Source of the DNA: a virus
Reading direction: 5' to 3' (one strand)
IMG/VR virus record: IMGVR_UViG_3300044639_001144
DNA: 64,000 nucleotides
Translations under genes and position numbers: made by a program
Shown here: positions 3,546-63,570 of the stretch, piece after piece
Layout of the letters: each line of letters opens with the position of its first letter
Numbering within the stretch: the stretch's first letter is position 1
Notes under the pieces: model-generated
Database searches by the model: none
Seen by the model: only the letters and a program-made list of their open reading frames with translations
Told to the model about the DNA's origin: nothing

Positions 3546-4361
3546 TTAACCATTTGCAGCACCGCACCTTGCACGTTTAGTCTGTACCAATTTACCAAAA
3601 TTTACAGGCCATTCTTTGCCTGGTGGTAATTCTACTGCATTAGTGGGAAACGCATACTTAACGCCGGCTGTTTGCATAATTTGTGCTACAGACACACGGA
3701 ATTTAGTTAGGTCATTGCCTAAATTTGGATATGGTGGCACATGTGGGAATTGCCAACCTGCCACTTCATTTGTTTGATTATTGATAACAATCTTATAAAA
3801 TCCACGTGGCACAACTACTCCATTGCCAATAATCTTGTCACCAGGTGCATATATGCTACCGGTTATGATTGTATAAGAATTATTAAGCTGTACTGTCCAC
3901 CCTCGGATAGATGTTTCTAGTAATTTCCAAATTCCACGGTTTAATGACCCGGCTTGCGGAACCATGTTAGTCATTAAAAATGATTCAAGTTCAACTTGCA
4001 TATTCCAACTTAAATCTCCATCCGGAGCCATATGTCCTTTATCGTAACCTGTGCCAGCATAATCATCTGGGCGAGGACCATTACGTATAGATTGATCAGC
4101 AACAAACGCATTGGTTCGTGGTATGCAACCTAATGCGTTAGTAGGAATAAGTTCGTACATTACAAACTCTGGTATTTTGGCAGCAGAATCATATCCCACT
4201 AGATATGCTTGTCTACAAATAGGTTGTATTGATCTAGAACTTTGAGGAAACCCGTATGGGGCATGTATTTGGCATGCTGCTACTGGGTTAGGAGGGCGTT
4301 GATCCCACGCAAATACAGTAGATGATAATATCGATAATAATACAACGAATAACTTCTTCAT
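3546..4361 (-). CDS. DNA/RNA non-specific endonuclease (NucA/Serratia-type His-Me finger) with a signal peptide
   Basis: YDKGHMAP (DRGH-like motif), SFLMTNMVPQAGSLNRGIWKLLE, VPRGFYKIV; N-terminus MKKLFVVLLSILSSTVFA resembles a Sec signal peptide. Confidence 0.92.
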   Translation of the reverse strand: MKKLFVVLLSILSSTVFAWDQRPPNPVAACQIHAPYGFPQSSRSIQPICRQAYLVGYDSAAKIPEFVMYELIPTNALGCIPRTNAFVADQSIRNGPRPDDYAGTGYDKGHMAPDGDLSWNMQVELESFLMTNMVPQAGSLNRGIWKLLETSIRGWTVQLNNSYTIITGSIYAPGDKIIGNGVVVPRGFYKIVINNQTNEVAGWQFPHVPPYPNLGNDLTKFRVSVAQIMQTAGVKYAFPTNAVELPPGKEWPVNFGKLVQTKRARCGAANG

Positions 4362-54726: not shown

Positions 54727-54777
54727 TATTTATTGAAACATGAATTTTTTAAACAGCACACTAAATGACAGTAAATA
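54727..54777. promoter_or_regulatory. Divergent late promoters (ATAAATA minus 54727-54733; GTAAATA plus 54771-54777)
   Basis: The plus-strand box is 5 nt upstream of the ATG at 54783. Confidence 0.6.
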
Positions 54778-54782
54778 TCACC

Positions 54783-55934
54783 ATGACTCCTGACGAATAT
54801 CTAGCACATGGTAATAATTTTCGTTCATTAACTGAACCTGAAAAAGCACTAGCTTGCTACGCACAAGCATTTATAAAAAATCCCAAGATGGGATCTGCCT
54901 ATAACAATTATGGTAACGTAGTACGTGAAATGGGTTATCCTGAACAGGCAATTGGCTTCTTACTTAATGCAATTGCCATTGATCCAAAGGATACTGTTGC
55001 TCAATTCAATCTTGCTGTAGCATATTTGCTGTCAGGCGATCTTGAACGTGGATGGAAACAGTATGAAAAACGCTGGAGTTTTGAACATTTAGACGGTAAA
55101 TTGCCACAATTTCAAAAGCCACGATGGGAAGGGCAGGATTTAACTGGAAAAACTATACTTGTAACTGGTGAACAAGGTCATGGCGACAATATACAGTTTT
55201 GTCGTTTTGCCGAACAGCTTGTACATGCGGGTGCGAAAGTGTACATCAGTGTAGACAATAATTTACGTCCATTATTTTTGGCATCATTTTTAAATGCTGT
55301 TACAATATTAGCACCAGAAGATTTACTTCCTGAGTTTGATTACTGGACTCCGATTATGAGTATACCTGGATTTTTAGGCATTACCTATGATAATTTGCCC
55401 TACAAATTACAGTATCTTAATCCCAGTGCAGCAACAGTTCAAACTTGGGCTAAAAGATTAGGTTTAAAAAATCGTTTACGAGTTGGGTTTTGCTGGAGTG
55501 GTCGTAAAGATAGCTGGATTAATCAACACAAAGCAGTACCTTTTGAGAAAATGTTAGCTTTAATACAACGAAATCCTGATTATGAATGGCTTAATCTTCA
55601 GGCTGAATGTAGTTCTGATGAAGAAGCCAAATTAGTCGCAGCGGGAGTAAAAGCATATCCTGCTAGTATTGGCAATTGGGATGATACTGCTGGATTAATG
55701 CAACATCTAGACGTTGTAATAGCAGTAGATACTTCAGTGGGACATTTAGCAGGAGCTATGGGCAGACCATTTTGGTTACCGCTCAATAAATTTGGGCAAG
55801 ATTGGCGTTGGTTACTTGACAGAAATGATAGTCCTTGGTATGGATCATGCCGCATATTCCGTCAACCTACAATTGGCAACTGGGACGATCCACTTGAACA
55901 AATTCACAATAATCTAAAGCTGTTTAAGATTTAA
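54783..55934 (+). CDS. TPR-repeat plus GT-B (family 9-like) glycosyltransferase
   Basis: About three TPRs (AYNNYGNV, AQFNLAVAYL), WEGQDLTGKTILVTGEQGHGDNIQFCRF, LDVVIAVDTSVGHLAGAMG, DWRWL..R.DSPWY...IFRQ; start moved to 54783. Confidence 0.88.
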   Translation: MTPDEYLAHGNNFRSLTEPEKALACYAQAFIKNPKMGSAYNNYGNVVREMGYPEQAIGFLLNAIAIDPKDTVAQFNLAVAYLLSGDLERGWKQYEKRWSFEHLDGKLPQFQKPRWEGQDLTGKTILVTGEQGHGDNIQFCRFAEQLVHAGAKVYISVDNNLRPLFLASFLNAVTILAPEDLLPEFDYWTPIMSIPGFLGITYDNLPYKLQYLNPSAATVQTWAKRLGLKNRLRVGFCWSGRKDSWINQHKAVPFEKMLALIQRNPDYEWLNLQAECSSDEEAKLVAAGVKAYPASIGNWDDTAGLMQHLDVVIAVDTSVGHLAGAMGRPFWLPLNKFGQDWRWLLDRNDSPWYGSCRIFRQPTIGNWDDPLEQIHNNLKLFKI

Positions 55935-55990: not shown

Positions 55991-58900
55991 ATGGCTGATG
56001 GTAATTTTGATAATGTATCCGCAACGGGTAATATACTAGCTGATGGTTATATTTCAGCAGCAGGAAATGTAACAGCAGAAGGATTATTGTTTAATAGTCC
56101 AACTACTGCTAATATCAGTGTAGGCAATATTGGTGTATACGATAATTTAAATATGTCTGGCACATTGTCAACTAGTGGCAACGTGACAGCAGCTAGAATA
56201 ACAGGTAATCTTGTTACAGGAAATCAGCCTAATATCACTAACGTCGGCACATTATCTAGCTTGACCGTGTCAGGTAATGCCACTTCCGGTAATGTATTAA
56301 CATCAGGCGTTATTAGTTCAACCGGCAATGCTAGACATGGCAATGTAACAGCAGGAATTGTTTCTGCAAATACTGTACTAGCCAATGCCATAACATTTAA
56401 CAGTCCAACTACAGCTAATATTGATGTTGGCAACCTTGCGTTGTATAGTAATTTAAATATGACCGGAGCTATATCTACTAGTGGTAATATTACTGGTGCT
56501 AGATTTATTGGTAATTTATTCACAGCAAATCAACCTAATATCACTAACGTTGGAACATTAACTAGTTTAACAGTAAGTGGTAATGCTACAGCTGGTAATG
56601 TATTAACGGCAGGCGTTGTTAGTTCAACTGGTAACGCGACACATGGTAATGTAGCAGCAGGAATTGTTTCCGCAAATGCTGTATTAACCAATACCATAAC
56701 ATTTAACAGTCCAACCACTGCTAACATTAGTGTTGGCAATCTTGCGTTATATAGTAATTTAAATATGACTGGCTCTGTGTCAGCTGCTGGAAATATTAGA
56801 GGCAACTATTTTCTAGGAAATGGTTACTACTTGACAGGCATAAGTGGTGTAGCAAGTACCTATGGAAATAGTAATGTAGCAGCTTACTTACCTACATATA
56901 CAGGTAATTTAACAGCAAACGTTATATCAACAACCGGTAATATTACTGGAAGTTACATTTTTGGCAATGGAAGTCAGCTAACTGGTATTACTACTAGCTA
57001 TGGAAATGCAAATACTGCTGGTTTCTTAGCAAACTTTGGTTCCAACACAATTAGTACGACAGGATCAATCAGCGCCGGCGATGTTACTTTAAATAATCTT
57101 TACTCTCCTAATTATTTTGCTAATGCTGTAGCGTTTGCTAATGCTACCGGTTATATTACTACTTCTAGTTTATTCAAGTATAATTCCGGAACAGAAGTTC
57201 TTACAGTAGGCGCTGTATCTGCTACAGGCAATATCACTGCTAATTATTTCGTTGGTAATGGAAGTCAATTAACTGATCTTCCAGCCGGTTATTCAAATGC
57301 TGATGTTTCTACATATCTCGCAAATAGCAATGTAGTAATTTCAACAACTGGTAATATCACTGCTAATTATTTCGTTGGTAATGGAAGTCAATTAACTGAT
57401 CTTCCAGCCGGTTATTCAAATGCTGATGTTTCTACATATCTCGCAAATAGCAATGTAGTAATTTCAACAACTGGTAATATTACCGGAAGTTATATTCTAG
57501 GTAATGGAAGTCAATTAACTGGTCTGCCATCTGGTAGCGGTAACACAGGCAATGTTACATTTGATGATGTCAACATCATTGGCACAGGAAACTTAAACCT
57601 ACAACCAAACGGTGCCAGCAATGAGTATTTAAATATTTACTTGACTGGGAACGCGGATATACATGTAGCAGCTGGTGGTGGCGTTGGTAATGTAATTTTG
57701 GGCACAGATGAACAAGCCAATGTTGCTGTTTTACAGGATGGCAATGTGGCCATACAGGCTGGTAATGTCAGTGGCACAAAGACTTGGAACTTTGACATTA
57801 CTGGTAACTTGACCTTGCCATTGAATAGTGTTGTTTATGAAACCAACATTCCAGACGGCGGACTTAGCGGCAGTGCTATTGCTTTAAAGCCAACAGGTGG
57901 AACAAATGCTGATCAACAGTTATTAATTTATCCAACCACTAATGATGCCAATCACCTACACTTGACTTCGGGCAACTTATACAGCACAGAATTGTTCTTT
58001 GGTAGTGATAACTTGTATGTGAAATTAGCAAATACAGGCAACGTTGTAATTAATAGTAATGATGGCATTGGCAATAGTGCTCAATGGACATTTGATACCA
58101 CTGGCAATTTAACATTACCAGGCAATACTTTCGCAGTTAACTATGCTAATGGTACTCAAGTATCAATCAGTGGTGGCAATGCTAGTACAGGTAATGTAAC
58201 ATTTGATAATAACATTGTAGTAGGTACAGGCGATGAATTCGGCGGCAGTGGATTGTATTTGGCTCCTGGCGCTAACAGCTCAGGCAATTTACAATATATT
58301 CGTGTGCGTGGTGGTGATGTTGTCACACACATACATTTAGATACCGGAAACAATGCTTATTTTGACCAATACTTTGGCGATGATGGCAAGTATGTTAAGT
58401 TAGCAAATACCGGTAATATTGAAATCAGAAGTGATGATGCCACCGGTAACGCAGCTCAATGGACATTTGATACCACTGGCAATTTAACATTACCAGGCAA
58501 CACTTTCGCAGTTAACTATGCTAATGGTACTCAAGTATCAATCGGTGGTGGCGGCAACACTGACTGGGCTAACATTGGTAATATCAACAATGTCAATGGC
58601 CCAACAAAAATAGCAGTTGGCGCTAATGCCGGACTGACCACACAAGGTGCATATTCTGTGGCCGTTGGCGAGAGTGCTGGCTCAAATAATCAAGGCTATG
58701 GGGGAGTGGCCGTTGGTAACTATGCTGGTTCTAACACACAAGGCGATTATGCAGTGGCCATTGGCGCCGATGCCGGACAAACCACACAAGGTGCTGGTGC
58801 AGTGGCCATTGGTAAAGATGCTGGAACAACCACACAAGGCGAATACGCAGTGGCCATTGGTCAAGATGCTGGAACAACCACACAAGGCGAATACGCAGTG

Positions 58901-59599
58901 GCCGTTGGTCCCCTTGCTGGAACAACCGAACAAGGCGCCCTCGCAGTGGCCGTTGGGACCGGTGCTGGCGAAACCTCACAAGGCACCCAAGCAGTGGCCA
59001 TTGGTTATAATGCTGGTCGCACTTCACAAGGCAACAACTCAATCATATTAAATGCTACTGGAGCTAACTTAAATCAAACCACAGCCAACACATTCACAGT
59101 GGCACCGGTCCGCAATGATGTGGCCAACATTGGAGAAGTGGTATTCTACAACACTGCCAGCAAGGAAATCACTTATGGCAATACCATAAATGTTACAGGT
59201 AACGTAACTGGTGGTAATATTTCTACCGGTGGTACATTAACTGCAACTGGTAAAATTGGTTATGCTTCAGGTTCAACTGTTACACAGCTTACCTCTAGAG
59301 GAACCGGTGTAATTATCAATACACTAGCAGGAACTATTATAACAACTAGTGCCGCTATGGTGGCAACCGAAATTGATACATTCTCTGTTACAAATAGTTC
59401 AGTGGATCCTAATAGTGATATTGTACTAGCGCAAATAGTTAGTCCTAACCAAGGAACATATAATTGTATCGCAAATCCTGCTACTATCGGTGGATTCAAC
59501 CCTGGATTCTTTTTAAACATTGTAAACATCAGTGGTTTTACAACTAGTGATGAAACAATTACTATAAGATTTATGATTATCAAAGCTCCCAACGCATAA
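55991..59599 (+). CDS. Tail fibre/adhesin with YadA-head-like repeats (1202 aa)
   Basis: GN-rich stalk, YGNSNVAAYL modules, about nine 16-aa AVAIG..AG.TTQG repeats; ATAAATA at 55959-55965 and AAGGAG SD. Confidence 0.82.
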   Translation: MADGNFDNVSATGNILADGYISAAGNVTAEGLLFNSPTTANISVGNIGVYDNLNMSGTLSTSGNVTAARITGNLVTGNQPNITNVGTLSSLTVSGNATSGNVLTSGVISSTGNARHGNVTAGIVSANTVLANAITFNSPTTANIDVGNLALYSNLNMTGAISTSGNITGARFIGNLFTANQPNITNVGTLTSLTVSGNATAGNVLTAGVVSSTGNATHGNVAAGIVSANAVLTNTITFNSPTTANISVGNLALYSNLNMTGSVSAAGNIRGNYFLGNGYYLTGISGVASTYGNSNVAAYLPTYTGNLTANVISTTGNITGSYIFGNGSQLTGITTSYGNANTAGFLANFGSNTISTTGSISAGDVTLNNLYSPNYFANAVAFANATGYITTSSLFKYNSGTEVLTVGAVSATGNITANYFVGNGSQLTDLPAGYSNADVSTYLANSNVVISTTGNITANYFVGNGSQLTDLPAGYSNADVSTYLANSNVVISTTGNITGSYILGNGSQLTGLPSGSGNTGNVTFDDVNIIGTGNLNLQPNGASNEYLNIYLTGNADIHVAAGGGVGNVILGTDEQANVAVLQDGNVAIQAGNVSGTKTWNFDITGNLTLPLNSVVYETNIPDGGLSGSAIALKPTGGTNADQQLLIYPTTNDANHLHLTSGNLYSTELFFGSDNLYVKLANTGNVVINSNDGIGNSAQWTFDTTGNLTLPGNTFAVNYANGTQVSISGGNASTGNVTFDNNIVVGTGDEFGGSGLYLAPGANSSGNLQYIRVRGGDVVTHIHLDTGNNAYFDQYFGDDGKYVKLANTGNIEIRSDDATGNAAQWTFDTTGNLTLPGNTFAVNYANGTQVSIGGGGNTDWANIGNINNVNGPTKIAVGANAGLTTQGAYSVAVGESAGSNNQGYGGVAVGNYAGSNTQGDYAVAIGADAGQTTQGAGAVAIGKDAGTTTQGEYAVAIGQDAGTTTQGEYAVAVGPLAGTTEQGALAVAVGTGAGETSQGTQAVAIGYNAGRTSQGNNSIILNATGANLNQTTANTFTVAPVRNDVANIGEVVFYNTASKEITYGNTINVTGNVTGGNISTGGTLTATGKIGYASGSTVTQLTSRGTGVIINTLAGTIITTSAAMVATEIDTFSVTNSSVDPNSDIVLAQIVSPNQGTYNCIANPATIGGFNPGFFLNIVNISGFTTSDETITIRFMIIKAPNA
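57230..57480. repeat. Perfect 123-nt tandem duplication (41 aa)
   Basis: aatatcactgctaattatttcgttgg...caacaactggt occurs at 57230 and 57353. Confidence 0.95.
58079..58543. repeat. About 90-nt near-identical direct repeat, 375 nt apart
   Basis: gctcaatggacatttgataccactggc...caagtatcaatc at 58079 and 58454, one mismatch. Confidence 0.9.
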
Positions 59600-59672: not shown

Positions 59673-59704
59673 AAAAAGCACCGTTTGGTGCTTGATTGTG
59701 TTGA
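59673..59704 (-). terminator. Intrinsic terminator between convergent genes
   Basis: AAGCACC-AAAC-GGTGCTT followed by TTT on the minus strand. Confidence 0.75.
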
Positions 59705-59708
59705 TTTA

Positions 59709-60368
59709 TTATTCAGATAGAGGTGTAGCTAGTATATTATTATTTTCTGTAGTAGTGTTAGTGTTTTGAATTTTTAACGGTTGGACCTGTGTTAGTTCAA
59801 CTTTCAGTGGATCGTTGCTGGATTTTAACAGGAAAGAGTCTTTGGGAATCAATCCTAGACCTTTTAGCGCATTCCAAGTAACAGGATTACTCATGGCATT
59901 ACGAATTTTTGCTGGACTTGGATGACCAGTGGCTAATATTTCTGCGTAAATTTCTTTACCTATTACTGCAGTAAATTCATTGGCAGCATTTACCTCAAAC
60001 ATCTGCTCATCAGTATATCCAGGAATACGAGTAGGCTCGGCGATTTCGTAGTATTCGGCCAACAAATTCTGCAGTATTTCTATTTCTTGACGATTGAGTT
60101 CAAATGCATAACTGGGATCACCAAAACTTTCAGTTTCTTTAATGTTCGCTTCTAATTCTAATATTTCATATTCTGGAGTGTCGGGTTGAGATTTTAAGTA
60201 TTCAAGTTTTGCTTTTTGTGCTTTGAAACGAATAATAGAAACTTCTTCCAATTTAGAGGCTCTGATACGGCCTTCTAAGAATCCCTGTAGTGTTTTGATT
60301 TTTTCCCAAACAGTTTCGCCGATTACTTGATAGCGATAGTTAAATTCTGAATTTAATTTTGATGGCAT
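59709..60368 (-). CDS. Helical/coiled-coil hypothetical protein next to the propeller genes (219 aa)
   Basis: SKLNSEFNYRYQVIGET.WEKIKTL; Glu-rich heptads; own late promoter at 60387-60393. Confidence 0.75.
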   Translation of the reverse strand: MPSKLNSEFNYRYQVIGETVWEKIKTLQGFLEGRIRASKLEEVSIIRFKAQKAKLEYLKSQPDTPEYEILELEANIKETESFGDPSYAFELNRQEIEILQNLLAEYYEIAEPTRIPGYTDEQMFEVNAANEFTAVIGKEIYAEILATGHPSPAKIRNAMSNPVTWNALKGLGLIPKDSFLLKSSNDPLKVELTQVQPLKIQNTNTTTENNNILATPLSE

Positions 60369-60425
60369 AATATTCCTTAGATACAGTATTTATTATGCCA
60401 TCAATCGAGCCTTAAATTTTATTAA

Positions 60426-61376
60426 TTAACCGTATGAGGCTGCGGCGAGGCTGTCGCGAGCAGTGCCAACTCCGGTGGTATCAGTGGCAACAACACCGGT
60501 ATTGGATACCAAGTTAGTCATACTGACGGGGGCATATCCGGCAGAAACCAAACCATAACCAAATATGGCAGTATCTGTTCCATAACCGGCTGCGGCGAGG
60601 CCGATGCGAGCAGTGCCAACTCCGGTGGTATCAGTGGCAACAACACCTGTATCAGATACCAAGTTAGTCATACTGACAAAGGCAGATCCGTCATTACCAT
60701 ATCCAAATATTGCCTTGTCCCCTCCATAACCGGCTGCAGCAAGAAGGGCGCGAGCAGTGCCAACTCCGGTGGTATCAGTGGCAACAACACCTGTATTGGA
60801 TACCAAGTTAGTTACACTGAGGGAGGCAGATCCGTCATTACCATATCCAAATATGGCAGTATCTGTTCCATAACCTGCTGCAGCAAGACCGGAACGAGCA
60901 GTGCCAACTCCGGTGGTATCAGTGGCAACTACACCGGTATTGGATACCAAGTTAGTGACTGCTGTGCCGCTCGGGGCAATACTGCCATATCCAAATATTG
61001 CCTTGTCCCCTCCATAACCTGCTGCAGCAAGCCTGGAACGAGCAGTGCCAACTCCGGTGGTATCAGTGGCAACTACACCGGTATTGGATACCAAATTAGT
61101 TACACTGAGCAGGTTGATGTCGTCATCTCCATATCCAAATATTGCCTTGTCCCCTCCATAACCTGCTGCAGCAAGACCGAAGCGAGCAGTGCCAACTCCG
61201 GTGGTATCAGTGGCAATTACACCGGTATTGGATACCAAGTTAGTCATACTGACGGGGGCAAATCCGGCATCCAAACCATAACCAAATATTGCCTTTTTTC
61301 CAGTCCCAGGCGGAGGTGGTGACGGAGGTGCAGTTATTGTCATTCCGGTTAATACTACATTAGTGATTGTTCCCAT
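60426..61376 (-). CDS. Six-repeat Kelch-like beta-propeller protein A
   Basis: 6 x about 48-aa AIFGYG-[variable]-TNLVSNTGVVATDTTGVGTAR-xx-LAAAGYG; N-terminal short peptide plus polyproline. Confidence 0.8.
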   Translation of the reverse strand: MGTITNVVLTGMTITAPPSPPPPGTGKKAIFGYGLDAGFAPVSMTNLVSNTGVIATDTTGVGTARFGLAAAGYGGDKAIFGYGDDDINLLSVTNLVSNTGVVATDTTGVGTARSRLAAAGYGGDKAIFGYGSIAPSGTAVTNLVSNTGVVATDTTGVGTARSGLAAAGYGTDTAIFGYGNDGSASLSVTNLVSNTGVVATDTTGVGTARALLAAAGYGGDKAIFGYGNDGSAFVSMTNLVSDTGVVATDTTGVGTARIGLAAAGYGTDTAIFGYGLVSAGYAPVSMTNLVSNTGVVATDTTGVGTARDSLAAASYG

Positions 61377-62398
61377 TATAATTCCTGTTAGATTTTATTT
61401 AATTAACCGTATGATGAGGCAGCAAGATCGGAGCGAGCAGTGCCAACTCCAGTGGTATCAGTGGCAACGACACCAGTATTGGATATCAAGTTAGTTACAC
61501 TGACATCGACAGATGTGTCATTTCCATAACCAAATATTGCAGTATCTGTTCCGTATCCGGCTGCAGCAAGTTGGTAACGAGCAGTGCCAACTCCGGTGGT
61601 ATCAGTGGCAACAACACCTGTATTGGATACCAAGTTAGTCATACTATACACGGTTGGTGTCGCTGGTGGAGGACCCGGTGGCGGTAGCCCTCCATATCCA
61701 AATATTGCCTTGTCCCCTCCATAACCTGCTGCAGCAAGAGCGTAACGAGCAGTGCCAACTCCGGTGGTATCAGTGGCAACTACACCGGTATTGGATACCA
61801 AGTTAGTTACACTGACAGCAGCAGATCCGGTATATCCATATCCAAATATGGCAGTATCTGTTCCGTATCCAGCTGCGGCAACACCATTACGAGCAGTACC
61901 GACTCCGGTGGTATCAGTGGCAACTACACCGGTATTGGATACCAAGTTAGTCATACTGACAACGCTCGCGCCGGTAGTACCATAACCAAATATGGCAGTA
62001 TCTGTTCCATATCCGGCTGCAGCAAGACTGGCGCGAGCAGTGCCAACTCCGGTGGTATCAGTGGCAACTACACCGGTATCAGATACCAAGTTAGTGACTG
62101 CTGTGAATGCGAAAGATCCGTTAAATCCATATCCAAATATTGCCTTGTCCCCTCCATAACCTGCTGCGGCAGGACCGACACGAGCAGTGCCAACTCCGGT
62201 GGTATCAGTGGCAACTACACCGGTATCAGATACCAAGTTAGTGACTGCTGTAAAAGGAGATCCACCAGAGCCAAAACCAAATATTGCATTTTTTCCAGTC
62301 CCAGGCGGTGGTGGCGCTGGAGGTGCAGTTATTTCCAATCCTACTAGTGTTAAACCTGTAATTTCCATTATAATTCCTGTTAGATTTTATTTAATTAA
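61373..62398. repeat. 34-nt direct repeat marking a tandem gene-cassette duplication
   Basis: ccattataattcctgttagattttatttaattaa at 61373-61406 and 62365-62398 (stop codon, spacer, AGGA SD and ATG). Confidence 0.92.
61403..62368 (-). CDS. Six-repeat Kelch-like beta-propeller protein B
   Basis: Same framework as A with different loops. Confidence 0.8.
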   Translation of the reverse strand: MEITGLTLVGLEITAPPAPPPPGTGKNAIFGFGSGGSPFTAVTNLVSDTGVVATDTTGVGTARVGPAAAGYGGDKAIFGYGFNGSFAFTAVTNLVSDTGVVATDTTGVGTARASLAAAGYGTDTAIFGYGTTGASVVSMTNLVSNTGVVATDTTGVGTARNGVAAAGYGTDTAIFGYGYTGSAAVSVTNLVSNTGVVATDTTGVGTARYALAAAGYGGDKAIFGYGGLPPPGPPPATPTVYSMTNLVSNTGVVATDTTGVGTARYQLAAAGYGTDTAIFGYGNDTSVDVSVTNLISNTGVVATDTTGVGTARSDLAASSYG

Positions 62399-63570
62399 TT
62401 CAATGATACCCAAGTTGATCCATCATATCCATAGAAATTTGGCCCAGCAGTAACAAACACTATCATTCCAGCAGCAGGTGAAGCAATTGCAGCATCTCTT
62501 GCTGTTGTATTGGCATATACTGATGTTTGTATATATCCAACACCGGATGGTAAAACAATAGCATTTGCAGTTATAACATTTGCAGTTATAATATTAGCAT
62601 TGCTAATGTTACCACCAGTTCCTGATCCTAATGTTATTGTATTGGCAGTTATAACATCTACGTTACTAATGTTACCACCGGTTCCTGATCCAAGTATAAG
62701 AGTAGGTCCTAAAATATTGCCAGTACTGCTAATAATACCGACTGTTAATACATTACCGCCAGTTACATTACCAGTAACACTTATACTTGAACCTGTAATA
62801 ACTCCACCAACAACTGAGGCTGCGGTGGTTGTACCAGTGACACTTGTTGAAGAACCTGTAATAACTCCACCAACTACACTTGCTGCTGTGGTTGTACCTG
62901 TAACACTTGTTGAAGAACCTGTAATAACTCCACCAACAACTGAGGCCGCGGTGGTTGTACCAGTGACACTTGTACTTGATCCTGTAATAACTCCACCAAC
63001 TATTGAGTCTGCTGTGGTTGTACCTGTAACACTTGTTGAAGAACCTGTAATAACTCCACCAACTACACTTGCTGCTGTGGTTGTACCAGTAACACTTGTT
63101 GAAGAACCTGTAATAACTCCACCAACTACACTTGCACCTCTGATGGCACCGGTGGCACTGACAAGGCCAGTCGTGCGGATATTACTGGCTTGTACATTGC
63201 CAGTGGCACTTACTAGACCGCCAGTTAAGATATTAGATCCAGTGACGTTACCGCTTGAACTAATAACACCCGAATTTAACGAAGTTAATGTGCCAACTGA
63301 TGTAATATTTGATTGTGCGTTAGTTGTAACTGTGCCTGCTGTAGTTGCGTATGTGGCATTGGCTACTGCTCCTGTTACATTGGCACCGGTCAATGATGTT
63401 AACCTGCTACCATTACCAATAATATTACCACCGGTTATGTTACCGGTTGTGCTTAATAGAGTAGATACTGCTACTTGGTATGTAGTTCCACCATCAACAA
63501 TGGGTAACACATCGGAAGTGCTTCCCACAGCAGATAACACCGGTAATTGACTAATTTTTATGTCTGCCAT
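62395..63570 (-). CDS. Short fibre with 21-aa repeats (391 aa)
   Basis: N-terminal MADIKISQLP module; about six SVVGGVITGSSTSVTGTTTAA repeats (63 nt); C-terminal YANTTARDAAI..P.AGMIVF...GYDGSTW. Confidence 0.8.
   Translation of the reverse strand: MADIKISQLPVLSAVGSTSDVLPIVDGGTTYQVAVSTLLSTTGNITGGNIIGNGSRLTSLTGANVTGAVANATYATTAGTVTTNAQSNITSVGTLTSLNSGVISSSGNVTGSNILTGGLVSATGNVQASNIRTTGLVSATGAIRGASVVGGVITGSSTSVTGTTTAASVVGGVITGSSTSVTGTTTADSIVGGVITGSSTSVTGTTTAASVVGGVITGSSTSVTGTTTAASVVGGVITGSSTSVTGTTTAASVVGGVITGSSISVTGNVTGGNVLTVGIISSTGNILGPTLILGSGTGGNISNVDVITANTITLGSGTGGNISNANIITANVITANAIVLPSGVGYIQTSVYANTTARDAAIASPAAGMIVFVTAGPNFYGYDGSTWVSLN

Follow-up and report, generated by a model that had tools for sequence, protein, structure and literature searches.

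Viral Kelch-type propeller genes with blades that appear to evolve in concert and a linked 219-residue partner gene: candidate binding heads of an uncultured myovirus

Propellers whose repeats evolve together are known from a fungus. The HNWD/het-d/het-e genes of Podospora anserina encode WD40 propellers with a eukaryotic allorecognition role; their repeats undergo concerted evolution both inside a locus and among loci, while a few positions of the interaction surface diversify and the number of repeats varies markedly (PMC1805685). In viruses, the jumbo myovirus CBB of Pectobacterium encodes Kelch-type propellers (CBB_550, 552, 554), of which CBB_552 was found in virions by mass spectrometry; neither a hypervariable-loop pattern nor a partner gene was described for them (PMC5259590). 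Here we analyze two tandem propeller genes and an adjacent gene of 219 residues (aa), located at positions 59,709 to 62,398 of the IMG/VR virus record IMGVR_UViG_3300044639_001144. The stretch of 64,000 nucleotides (nt) that was analyzed is called the window below.

Taken together, the results point with moderate confidence to viral Kelch-type paralogues that would act as binding heads on the virion, with blades evolving in concert and the 219-aa protein as a dedicated partner. The HNWD WD40 family appears to be the closest described analogue. It shares with the window propellers both the concerted evolution of repeats and the diversification of a few surface positions, which are putative in the window propellers; it differs by its fold family, its allorecognition role and its variable repeat number, the number of blades being fixed at six in the window propellers apart from one doubtful five-blade contig. 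The CBB proteins are comparable as Kelch-type propellers of a large myovirus.

Repeats, fold and variable face of the propellers

The genes form one unit on the minus strand, given here from its first gene to its end:

62395..63570, minus strand: gene of a fibre-like repeat protein, 391 aa; open reading frame (ORF) with five to six 63-nt repeats
62369..62394, minus strand: 26-nt spacer upstream of gene B, TTAAATAAAATCTAACAGGAATTATA, containing an AGGA ribosome-binding site and identical to the spacer of gene A
61403..62368, minus strand: propeller gene B, 321 aa; ORF with six predicted Kelch-type blades
61377..61402, minus strand: second, identical 26-nt spacer, upstream of gene A, from the sequence
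60426..61376, minus strand: propeller gene A, 316 aa; ORF with six blades, the gene chosen for modelling
59709..60368, minus strand: gene of the 219-aa partner, all-helical in its model; ORF and model
59676..59693, minus strand: terminator-like hairpin followed by a T run, which ends the unit and lies between it and a convergent 1202-aa fibre gene

Since an identical spacer with a ribosome-binding site precedes both B and A, the duplication took in the upstream signal.

A first reading of this DNA from its sequence alone had described two tandem genes with 12 repeats of about 48 aa, a 32-nt framework identical in 10 of the 12 copies and two variable sites per repeat; each of these descriptions holds. 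Both ORFs contain six repeats of 46-56 aa (about 48) when split at the AIFG(Y/F)G motif. The blades are preceded by an N-terminal peptide with a proline-rich linker (27-28 aa in both propeller genes, 27 aa in gene B), and blade 5 of gene B has a long proline-rich loop. The 32-nt framework occurs 12 times on the minus strand (ten exact copies, one with one mismatch and one with two) and shuffled sequence gives 0 matches. The propeller genes show tandem periods of 144 and 288 nt (Tandem Repeats Finder). In the codon tables, columns 24-43 are nearly invariant, synonymous sites included. Change is close to saturation in seven first-loop columns, in an insertion region (0-8 residues) and in the codon pair that follows the arginine of the TAR motif. 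All the residue pairs and loops that had been listed for these two sites were found. Among blades, loop DNA is near random (15-74% identity). Some loop pieces are shared, as had been proposed, and the sharing is visible in the DNA: blades A4 and A5 have five identical codons in common (NDGSA), and blades A1 and A6 have eight loop codons in common with one base different.

The fold was examined on an AlphaFold model of gene A, built from an alignment of 32 relatives. The model is all-beta (predicted local distance difference test score, pLDDT, 86.8; predicted template modelling score, pTM, 0.82). Foldseek gave Kelch domains as best matches (expectation value E about 1e-16), with template modelling (TM) scores of 0.77-0.87 to KLHL12 and Keap1. 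VIA-align, an independent alignment of the model against all representatives, placed KLHL17, KLHL12 and Keap1 first (Z 35, 35 and 34; root-mean-square deviation 2.2 Å over 279-280 residues), followed by a Plasmodium falciparum Kelch protein (31.8), KLHL7 (27.5) and other Kelch-repeat proteins (18.9-24); among six-bladed propellers of other kinds, namely lectins, sialidases, NHL and YWTD domains, the top score was 18.7 or less. The Pfam Kelch models (Kelch_1 to Kelch_6) match neither propeller at E up to 1, and Kelch_1 is carried by 18% of the members of one related Atlas cluster. Because a structural match at Kelch level is found together with no Pfam Kelch match, the model indicates a Kelch-type six-bladed fold in a divergent sequence family. 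With KLHL17, KLHL12 and Keap1 the propellers, as modelled on gene A, share six four-stranded blades, a C-terminal strand closing the first blade and long B-C and D-A loops on the ligand face. They differ from these BTB-Kelch adaptors by a sequence identity of 13-16%, by having no BTB/BACK part, by blades that are near-identical except for their loops, and by belonging to a viral and probably extracellular family.

The ring closes in the model: the C-terminal LAAASYG strand completes the first blade, which starts at the N-terminal KAIFGYG (repeat phase 1+3). Each repeat runs through the LAAAGY strand, a short GGDK/GTDT turn, the KAIFGYG strand, the variable hairpin and the VS(V/M)TNLV strand, then the SNTG turn, the VVATD strand and the TTGVGTAR loop, which ends in the two variable residues. 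According to this strand order, a blade has four loops between its strands, and variation falls in loops one and three. Successive loops of an antiparallel four-stranded blade alternate between the faces of the propeller, so that both variable elements would lie on one face and the conserved turns on the other, as suggested by strand topology and alignment ranges. With LAAAGY innermost, the hairpin after FGYG would be the B-C loop and the two residues after the arginine the end of the D-A loop. These two loops form the ligand site of Keap1-type Kelch domains. The Keap1 contact residues presumably fall within a few residues of the variable sites in the near-gapless alignment, which is an approximate placement. 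The model topology thus agrees with the sequence-only reading, which had put the variable sites at the positions of the Kelch ligand face.

The propellers belong to a large family: metagenomes contain at least 2,398 clusters of related proteins when grouped at 90% identity. The near Atlas clusters of the family are all viral, gene B scores 458 bits against the family hidden Markov model, and six blades are the family-wide state. Entropy was computed on 528 blades from 119 relatives: it is 0-1.9 bits in the framework and 3.6-3.7 bits at the two positions after the arginine, which are rich in Tyr, Ser and Gly across the family. In the same blades the length of the first loop ranges over 5-22 residues, and 503 different loop sequences occur. 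Loops do not align between the relatives compared; the variation, measured as entropy, is concentrated at these two sites. Genomes carry from one to five tandem propeller copies. Some relatives have Laminin_G_3, fn3 or Mtd_N domains at their N-terminus, and others carry long fibre-like parts of up to about 1,900 aa. A comparison with 50,697 isolate phage records (DNA and protein) returned nothing for the region or for either propeller. For the propellers this held even at E 10; a low-complexity filter probably masked the query, and we do not claim absence of the propellers from these records. In the searchable literature, no paper characterizing the propeller family or the 219-aa family was found.

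The propellers could also be lectins of the PLL or tectonin type that bind sugars multivalently, each blade contributing an equivalent sugar site. The PLL lectins of Photorhabdus (PDB 6rfz; PF26607) have a similar repeat length, and the family profile matches PLL2 and PLL3 weakly but in repeat register (E 0.006 to 0.6). Precomputed matches to PF26607 (Beta-prop_PLL) exist on some relatives; a local Pfam scan gave no PF26607 match for the window propellers or for three relatives with precomputed hits. We take this profile match as no more than a distant lead. In structure, propeller lectins (Z 16-19) resemble the model far less than Kelch adaptors do (Z 35), and PLL lectins have seven blades against six in the window propellers. 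Multivalent lectins keep the same binding residues in every blade, whereas in the window each of the 12 blades has its own residues at the candidate binding positions. This difference makes one composite site, as in Keap1, more likely than the repeated sugar sites of propeller lectins, and we consider the lectin explanation decidedly improbable.

Concerted evolution of the blades and stability of the loops

The blades were compared within the window and with the closest relative (L001), which has a single propeller and a partner protein 94% identical to that of the window. Codons that encode an identical amino acid differ in the following proportions:

blade core, within the window: 12%
blade core, within L001: 15%
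blade core, window versus L001: 52%
flanking partner gene, window versus L001: 32%

Among blades with an identical 21-aa core, silent differences amount to 2.4 of 63 bases within the window versus 14 between genomes. The codon used for one amino acid varies by position along the blade and is constant at a given position across blades, so codon bias does not explain the uniformity of the framework. Given that six blades are ancestral, the silent similarity within the genome suggests concerted evolution, and these comparisons indicate that the framework DNA is homogenized within this genome. The blades are mosaic: when the four-gamete test was applied to 231 informative site pairs, all four combinations were present in 126, and at least six exchanges are needed within the 144-nt unit (minimum number of recombination events, Rm, at least 6). 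Blades of A and B intermix. The six loops of the L001 propeller all differ from all 12 loops of the window.

Homogenization is not general in the family. In other genomes, blades with an identical core differ by 1 to 14.7 bases within one genome, and in several of them blades are as diverged synonymously as blades of different genomes. This range implies that the protein scaffold is held by purifying selection everywhere and that DNA uniformity exists only in some genomes. The protein framework is thus kept across the family by purifying selection; recombination is not what maintains the scaffold. The proposal that the framework is kept homogeneous by recombination therefore stands for the DNA of this genome, with its homogenized and mosaic blades, and fails as an account of scaffold upkeep.

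A uniform framework could also result from a recent amplification of one blade in each gene, followed by fast divergence of the loops under positive selection, with no ongoing conversion. The low synonymous divergence among blades agrees with such a history, and the two-blade period of 288 nt suggests duplication units. Six blades are nevertheless the state of the whole family, the same homogenization is found independently in L001, and the framework polymorphisms are mosaic. Near-random loops beside synonymous sites that barely differ would, in addition, need extreme substitution rates. We regard this history as quite unlikely, and concerted evolution by exchange between blades as the better description.

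Are the loops still diversifying? At least 15 contigs encode a 219-aa protein identical to that of the window. The eight with DNA, from different samples, are 99.7-100% identical to the window, and every loop that they cover is identical, in both genes. Samples with this phage include JGI 3300042544, JGI 3300042446 and ENA ERZ27272076. One contig of 2.9 kb from another sample, assembled with MEGAHIT, carries at L166:321-1124 a single five-blade hybrid of B and A (B1-B2-B3/A3-A4/A5-A6) joined inside frameworks; it may be a real product of unequal exchange or an assembly chimera.

The loops might be written by a diversity-generating retroelement (DGR) or another targeted mutator. Some relatives do carry the Mtd N-terminal domain, and variable codons end in C or T above expectation (86 observed versus 72.5 expected, of 108). 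The same excess is seen in framework codons (325 observed versus 290 expected); being gene-wide, this codon pattern was rejected as a loop-specific signal. Beyond the 12 in-gene copies of the framework, the window contains no template-like 13th copy, and no reverse transcriptase was found among the ORFs scanned. The six adenines of the invariant 32-mer core never vary, and loop lengths differ among blades, which adenine mutagenesis does not produce. Together with the identical loops of the population contigs, these observations led us to reject a DGR target gene, and a mutator of any kind appears extremely improbable. The "antibody-like" diversification of the sequence-only reading does not survive as an ongoing process. 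There is no active diversity machine: diversification takes place over evolutionary time between lineages and not within the population.

The linked 219-aa gene

The 219-aa protein was used as bait and retrieved 80 viral loci at 55-94% identity. In 72 of them a propeller ORF ends directly upstream on the same strand. The eight other loci are distributed as follows: four have no upstream DNA and four truly have no propeller. The association is thus found in 72 of the 76 loci with room upstream, and the four exceptions imply that the partnership is not obligatory. The surroundings of the pair change: the gene downstream belongs to 30 families in 75 loci, and the gene upstream of the propeller cluster to 23 families in 50 loci. 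The persistence of the pair in changing surroundings speaks for a functional two-gene module and against synteny that was simply inherited. Propeller proteins encoded beside a partner gene have lengths of about 300 to 1,300 aa, and their propeller domain is C-terminal, on the side of the partner gene. Three propeller-less loci have neighbours of other kinds: at L003:4635-5300 these were guessed from sequence alone to be sugar-nucleotide enzymes, and L006:6001-6684 and L058:2132-2764 stand beside small fibre-like genes.

With the propeller as bait, 42 distinct loci were obtained: 16 show the propeller-to-partner order, in five the partner is close by but arranged differently, and in 21 the 8 kb around the propeller contain no 219-aa gene. 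The linkage is one-sided, in that the 219-aa gene is tied to propellers and about half of the propeller loci are without it. The expected linkage of the 219-aa family to propellers in other genomes thus holds when seen from the 219-aa gene, and only in part when seen from the propellers. The C-terminal tails of propellers do not tell genes that precede a 219-aa gene from those that have none. A 198-aa gene which comes after many partner-less propeller clusters was considered as a relative of the 219-aa gene and rejected: it encodes an unrelated PP-loop ATPase.

It may be asked whether the 219-aa gene is an unrelated conserved phage gene flanking an insertion hot spot for propellers. Several points agree with this: the family has at least 4,616 protein clusters and is well conserved, with identities of about 60%; some of its genes stand without a propeller, and it is missing from half of the propeller loci. 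Some members are, instead, fused to a 2OG-Fe(II) oxygenase or have its gene directly behind them. Insertion beside a core gene is expected to keep at least one conserved flank, whereas both outer neighbours vary here while the propeller-to-219 order and spacing are kept in 72 of 76 loci. The hot spot is in our view unlikely, and linkage supports, with moderate confidence, the 219-aa family as a genuine although not universal partner of the propellers.

What the partner does is suggested by analogy. None of the clusters of the 219-aa family has a Pfam domain, and the protein has no match in the isolate phage records. Family searches gave no sequence-family match and no homology to a known assembly factor. 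Its model (pLDDT 87.5) is all-helical, with helices at residues 20-60, 66-81, 86-113 and 120-147, and ends in a small hairpin and a disordered tail. A viral library gave one match at E 5e-4 (TM 0.44-0.49) to an unnamed protein, and weaker ones to uncharacterized myovirus proteins; VIA-align found generic helical hairpins only (Z up to 9). Since the protein is far more conserved than the loops, any contact with the propeller is expected through the constant part. In well-known phages fibre-assembly genes directly follow receptor-binding genes: T4 gp38 after gp37, lambda Tfa after Stf and Mu U after S. Like these, the 219-aa gene is a small gene immediately downstream of a gene with a C-terminal variable binding part. 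No sequence or fold similarity to them was found, and those partners co-vary with the fibre tip, whereas the 219-aa protein is conserved far beyond the loops. The sequence-only reading had taken the protein for a possible chaperone or scaffold; by this analogy it may be an assembly factor or adaptor, and we place low confidence in any specific role.

The 2OG-Fe(II) oxygenase gene (PF13759; L049:6679-7284) comes after the 219-aa gene in some of the relatives, and four protein clusters (P0121-P0124) are fusions of the two. This association hints at a possible hydroxylation of proteins; the propellers carry proline-rich linkers.

Genomic setting and proposed role

The window covers the structural genes of an uncultured myovirus of large size. 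It encodes the large terminase subunit, tail sheath, tail tube, sheath stabilizer and several giant fibre genes, and its tail sheath is about 43% identical to the sheaths of jumbo phages Atu_ph07 and PA5oct. The 391-aa fibre-like gene would head the transcription unit that contains the propellers. It includes a 63-nt (21-aa) tandem array at 62769-63129 (Tandem Repeats Finder), and family searches assigned it no family; in population contigs of the same phage a 412-aa variant of this protein is exactly one repeat unit longer. The convergent 1202-aa fibre gene (55991-59599, plus strand) has a B_lectin domain and YadA-head-like repeats; an array with 48/96/144-nt periods lies at 58691-59016, and some population contigs contain a 1161-aa length variant. 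Contigs of the same phage extend past the right end of the window; there, directly upstream of the fibre-propeller unit (L159:287-2361), lies a T4-type major capsid gene (Gp23) followed by a gene with a faint match to NUMOD3, a homing-endonuclease motif.

Other genes of the window were also recorded. Three giant ORFs (1952, 2218 and 2148 aa) at 29732-49863 on the minus strand have long shadow ORFs on the opposite strand and presumably encode repetitive fibre proteins. A 389-aa protein (54765-55934, plus strand) encoded among the fibre genes has TPR repeats and a weak match to glycosyltransferase family 9. An Endonuclease_NS gene (non-specific DNA/RNA endonuclease, E 9e-38; 3546-4361, minus strand) adjoins the large terminase gene. 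The GC content of the propeller genes is 50% versus 39% for the window, with a modest rise at third codon positions (GC3, 0.30-0.37 versus 0.14-0.32). The raised GC3 comes mostly from the content in Gly, Ala and Thr, and as an indication of foreign origin composition is not decisive.

The propeller genes thus follow a fibre-like gene in one unit, adjoin fibre genes and are near a major capsid gene. The fibre-like first gene, the fibre neighbours and the fusions of relatives to lectin-like, fn3 and Mtd domains favour an extracellular binding role on the virion, with which the detection of a Kelch-domain protein in CBB virions is consistent. The propellers might instead stay off the virion and work inside the infected cell, capturing host proteins in the manner of Kelch-type adaptors. 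Intracellular substrate adaptors are indeed their best structural matches, and many relatives adjoin replication or lysis genes; the window propellers, however, have no BTB or other effector domain, and the fusions and gene neighbourhood just described speak for fibres. An intracellular role appears very unlikely to us, and binding heads on the virus particle, recognizing a host surface structure, are the most likely function.

As binding heads, the propellers would work as follows. Each blade would add two variable elements to one face, the hairpin after FGYG and the two residues after the arginine, and each propeller would show one composite, asymmetric surface of 12 elements on an almost invariant scaffold. 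Each paralogue may have its own specificity, and attachment to the virion would be through the short N-terminal peptide and the proline-rich linker. Gene conversion or unequal exchange within and between both genes would homogenize the framework DNA and sometimes copy parts of loops. Loops would stay different through selection and because conversion tracts stop in diverged sequence. The 219-aa helical protein would be a dedicated partner of the conserved part of the propeller, as assembly factor or adaptor.

Several points weigh against this interpretation. Many relatives of the propellers stand outside tail modules and adjoin genes for DNA polymerase, endolysin or head-tail adaptors. Gene conversion is not fully separable from repeated re-amplification of one blade. 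The four 219-aa loci without an upstream propeller and the 21 of 42 propeller loci without the 219-aa gene count against a dedicated pair, and the fold of the 219-aa protein matches nothing informative, Foldseek giving no match in the PDB at E 0.001 or better.

A broader proposal can be made. The propeller gene or genes and the 219-aa gene may be a self-contained, mobile host-recognition cartridge of aquatic myoviruses, in which the 219-aa protein would be a universal adaptor docking interchangeable Kelch heads on the virion, and homogenization of the framework would enable the exchange of heads and loops by homologous recombination within and between phages. This extension is tentative and, on present evidence, rather unlikely to hold in full.

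Within a known fold class, the propeller family stands as a viral branch that has diverged. To this the locus adds what appears to be a clean viral example of concerted evolution in a repeat protein, in which loops escape homogenization, quantified against a close relative and accompanied by population evidence of stable loops. It also adds a comparative test supporting the 219-aa family as a partner that is genuine but not found with every propeller. In viral metagenomes from aquatic sources the two families are very abundant, as the cluster counts given above indicate. If the propellers are host-binding heads, they would be a compact and naturally modular binding scaffold, and would likely help to determine which hosts many large uncultured phages can infect. 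The partner gene would then be a concrete handle on how such heads are folded or mounted.

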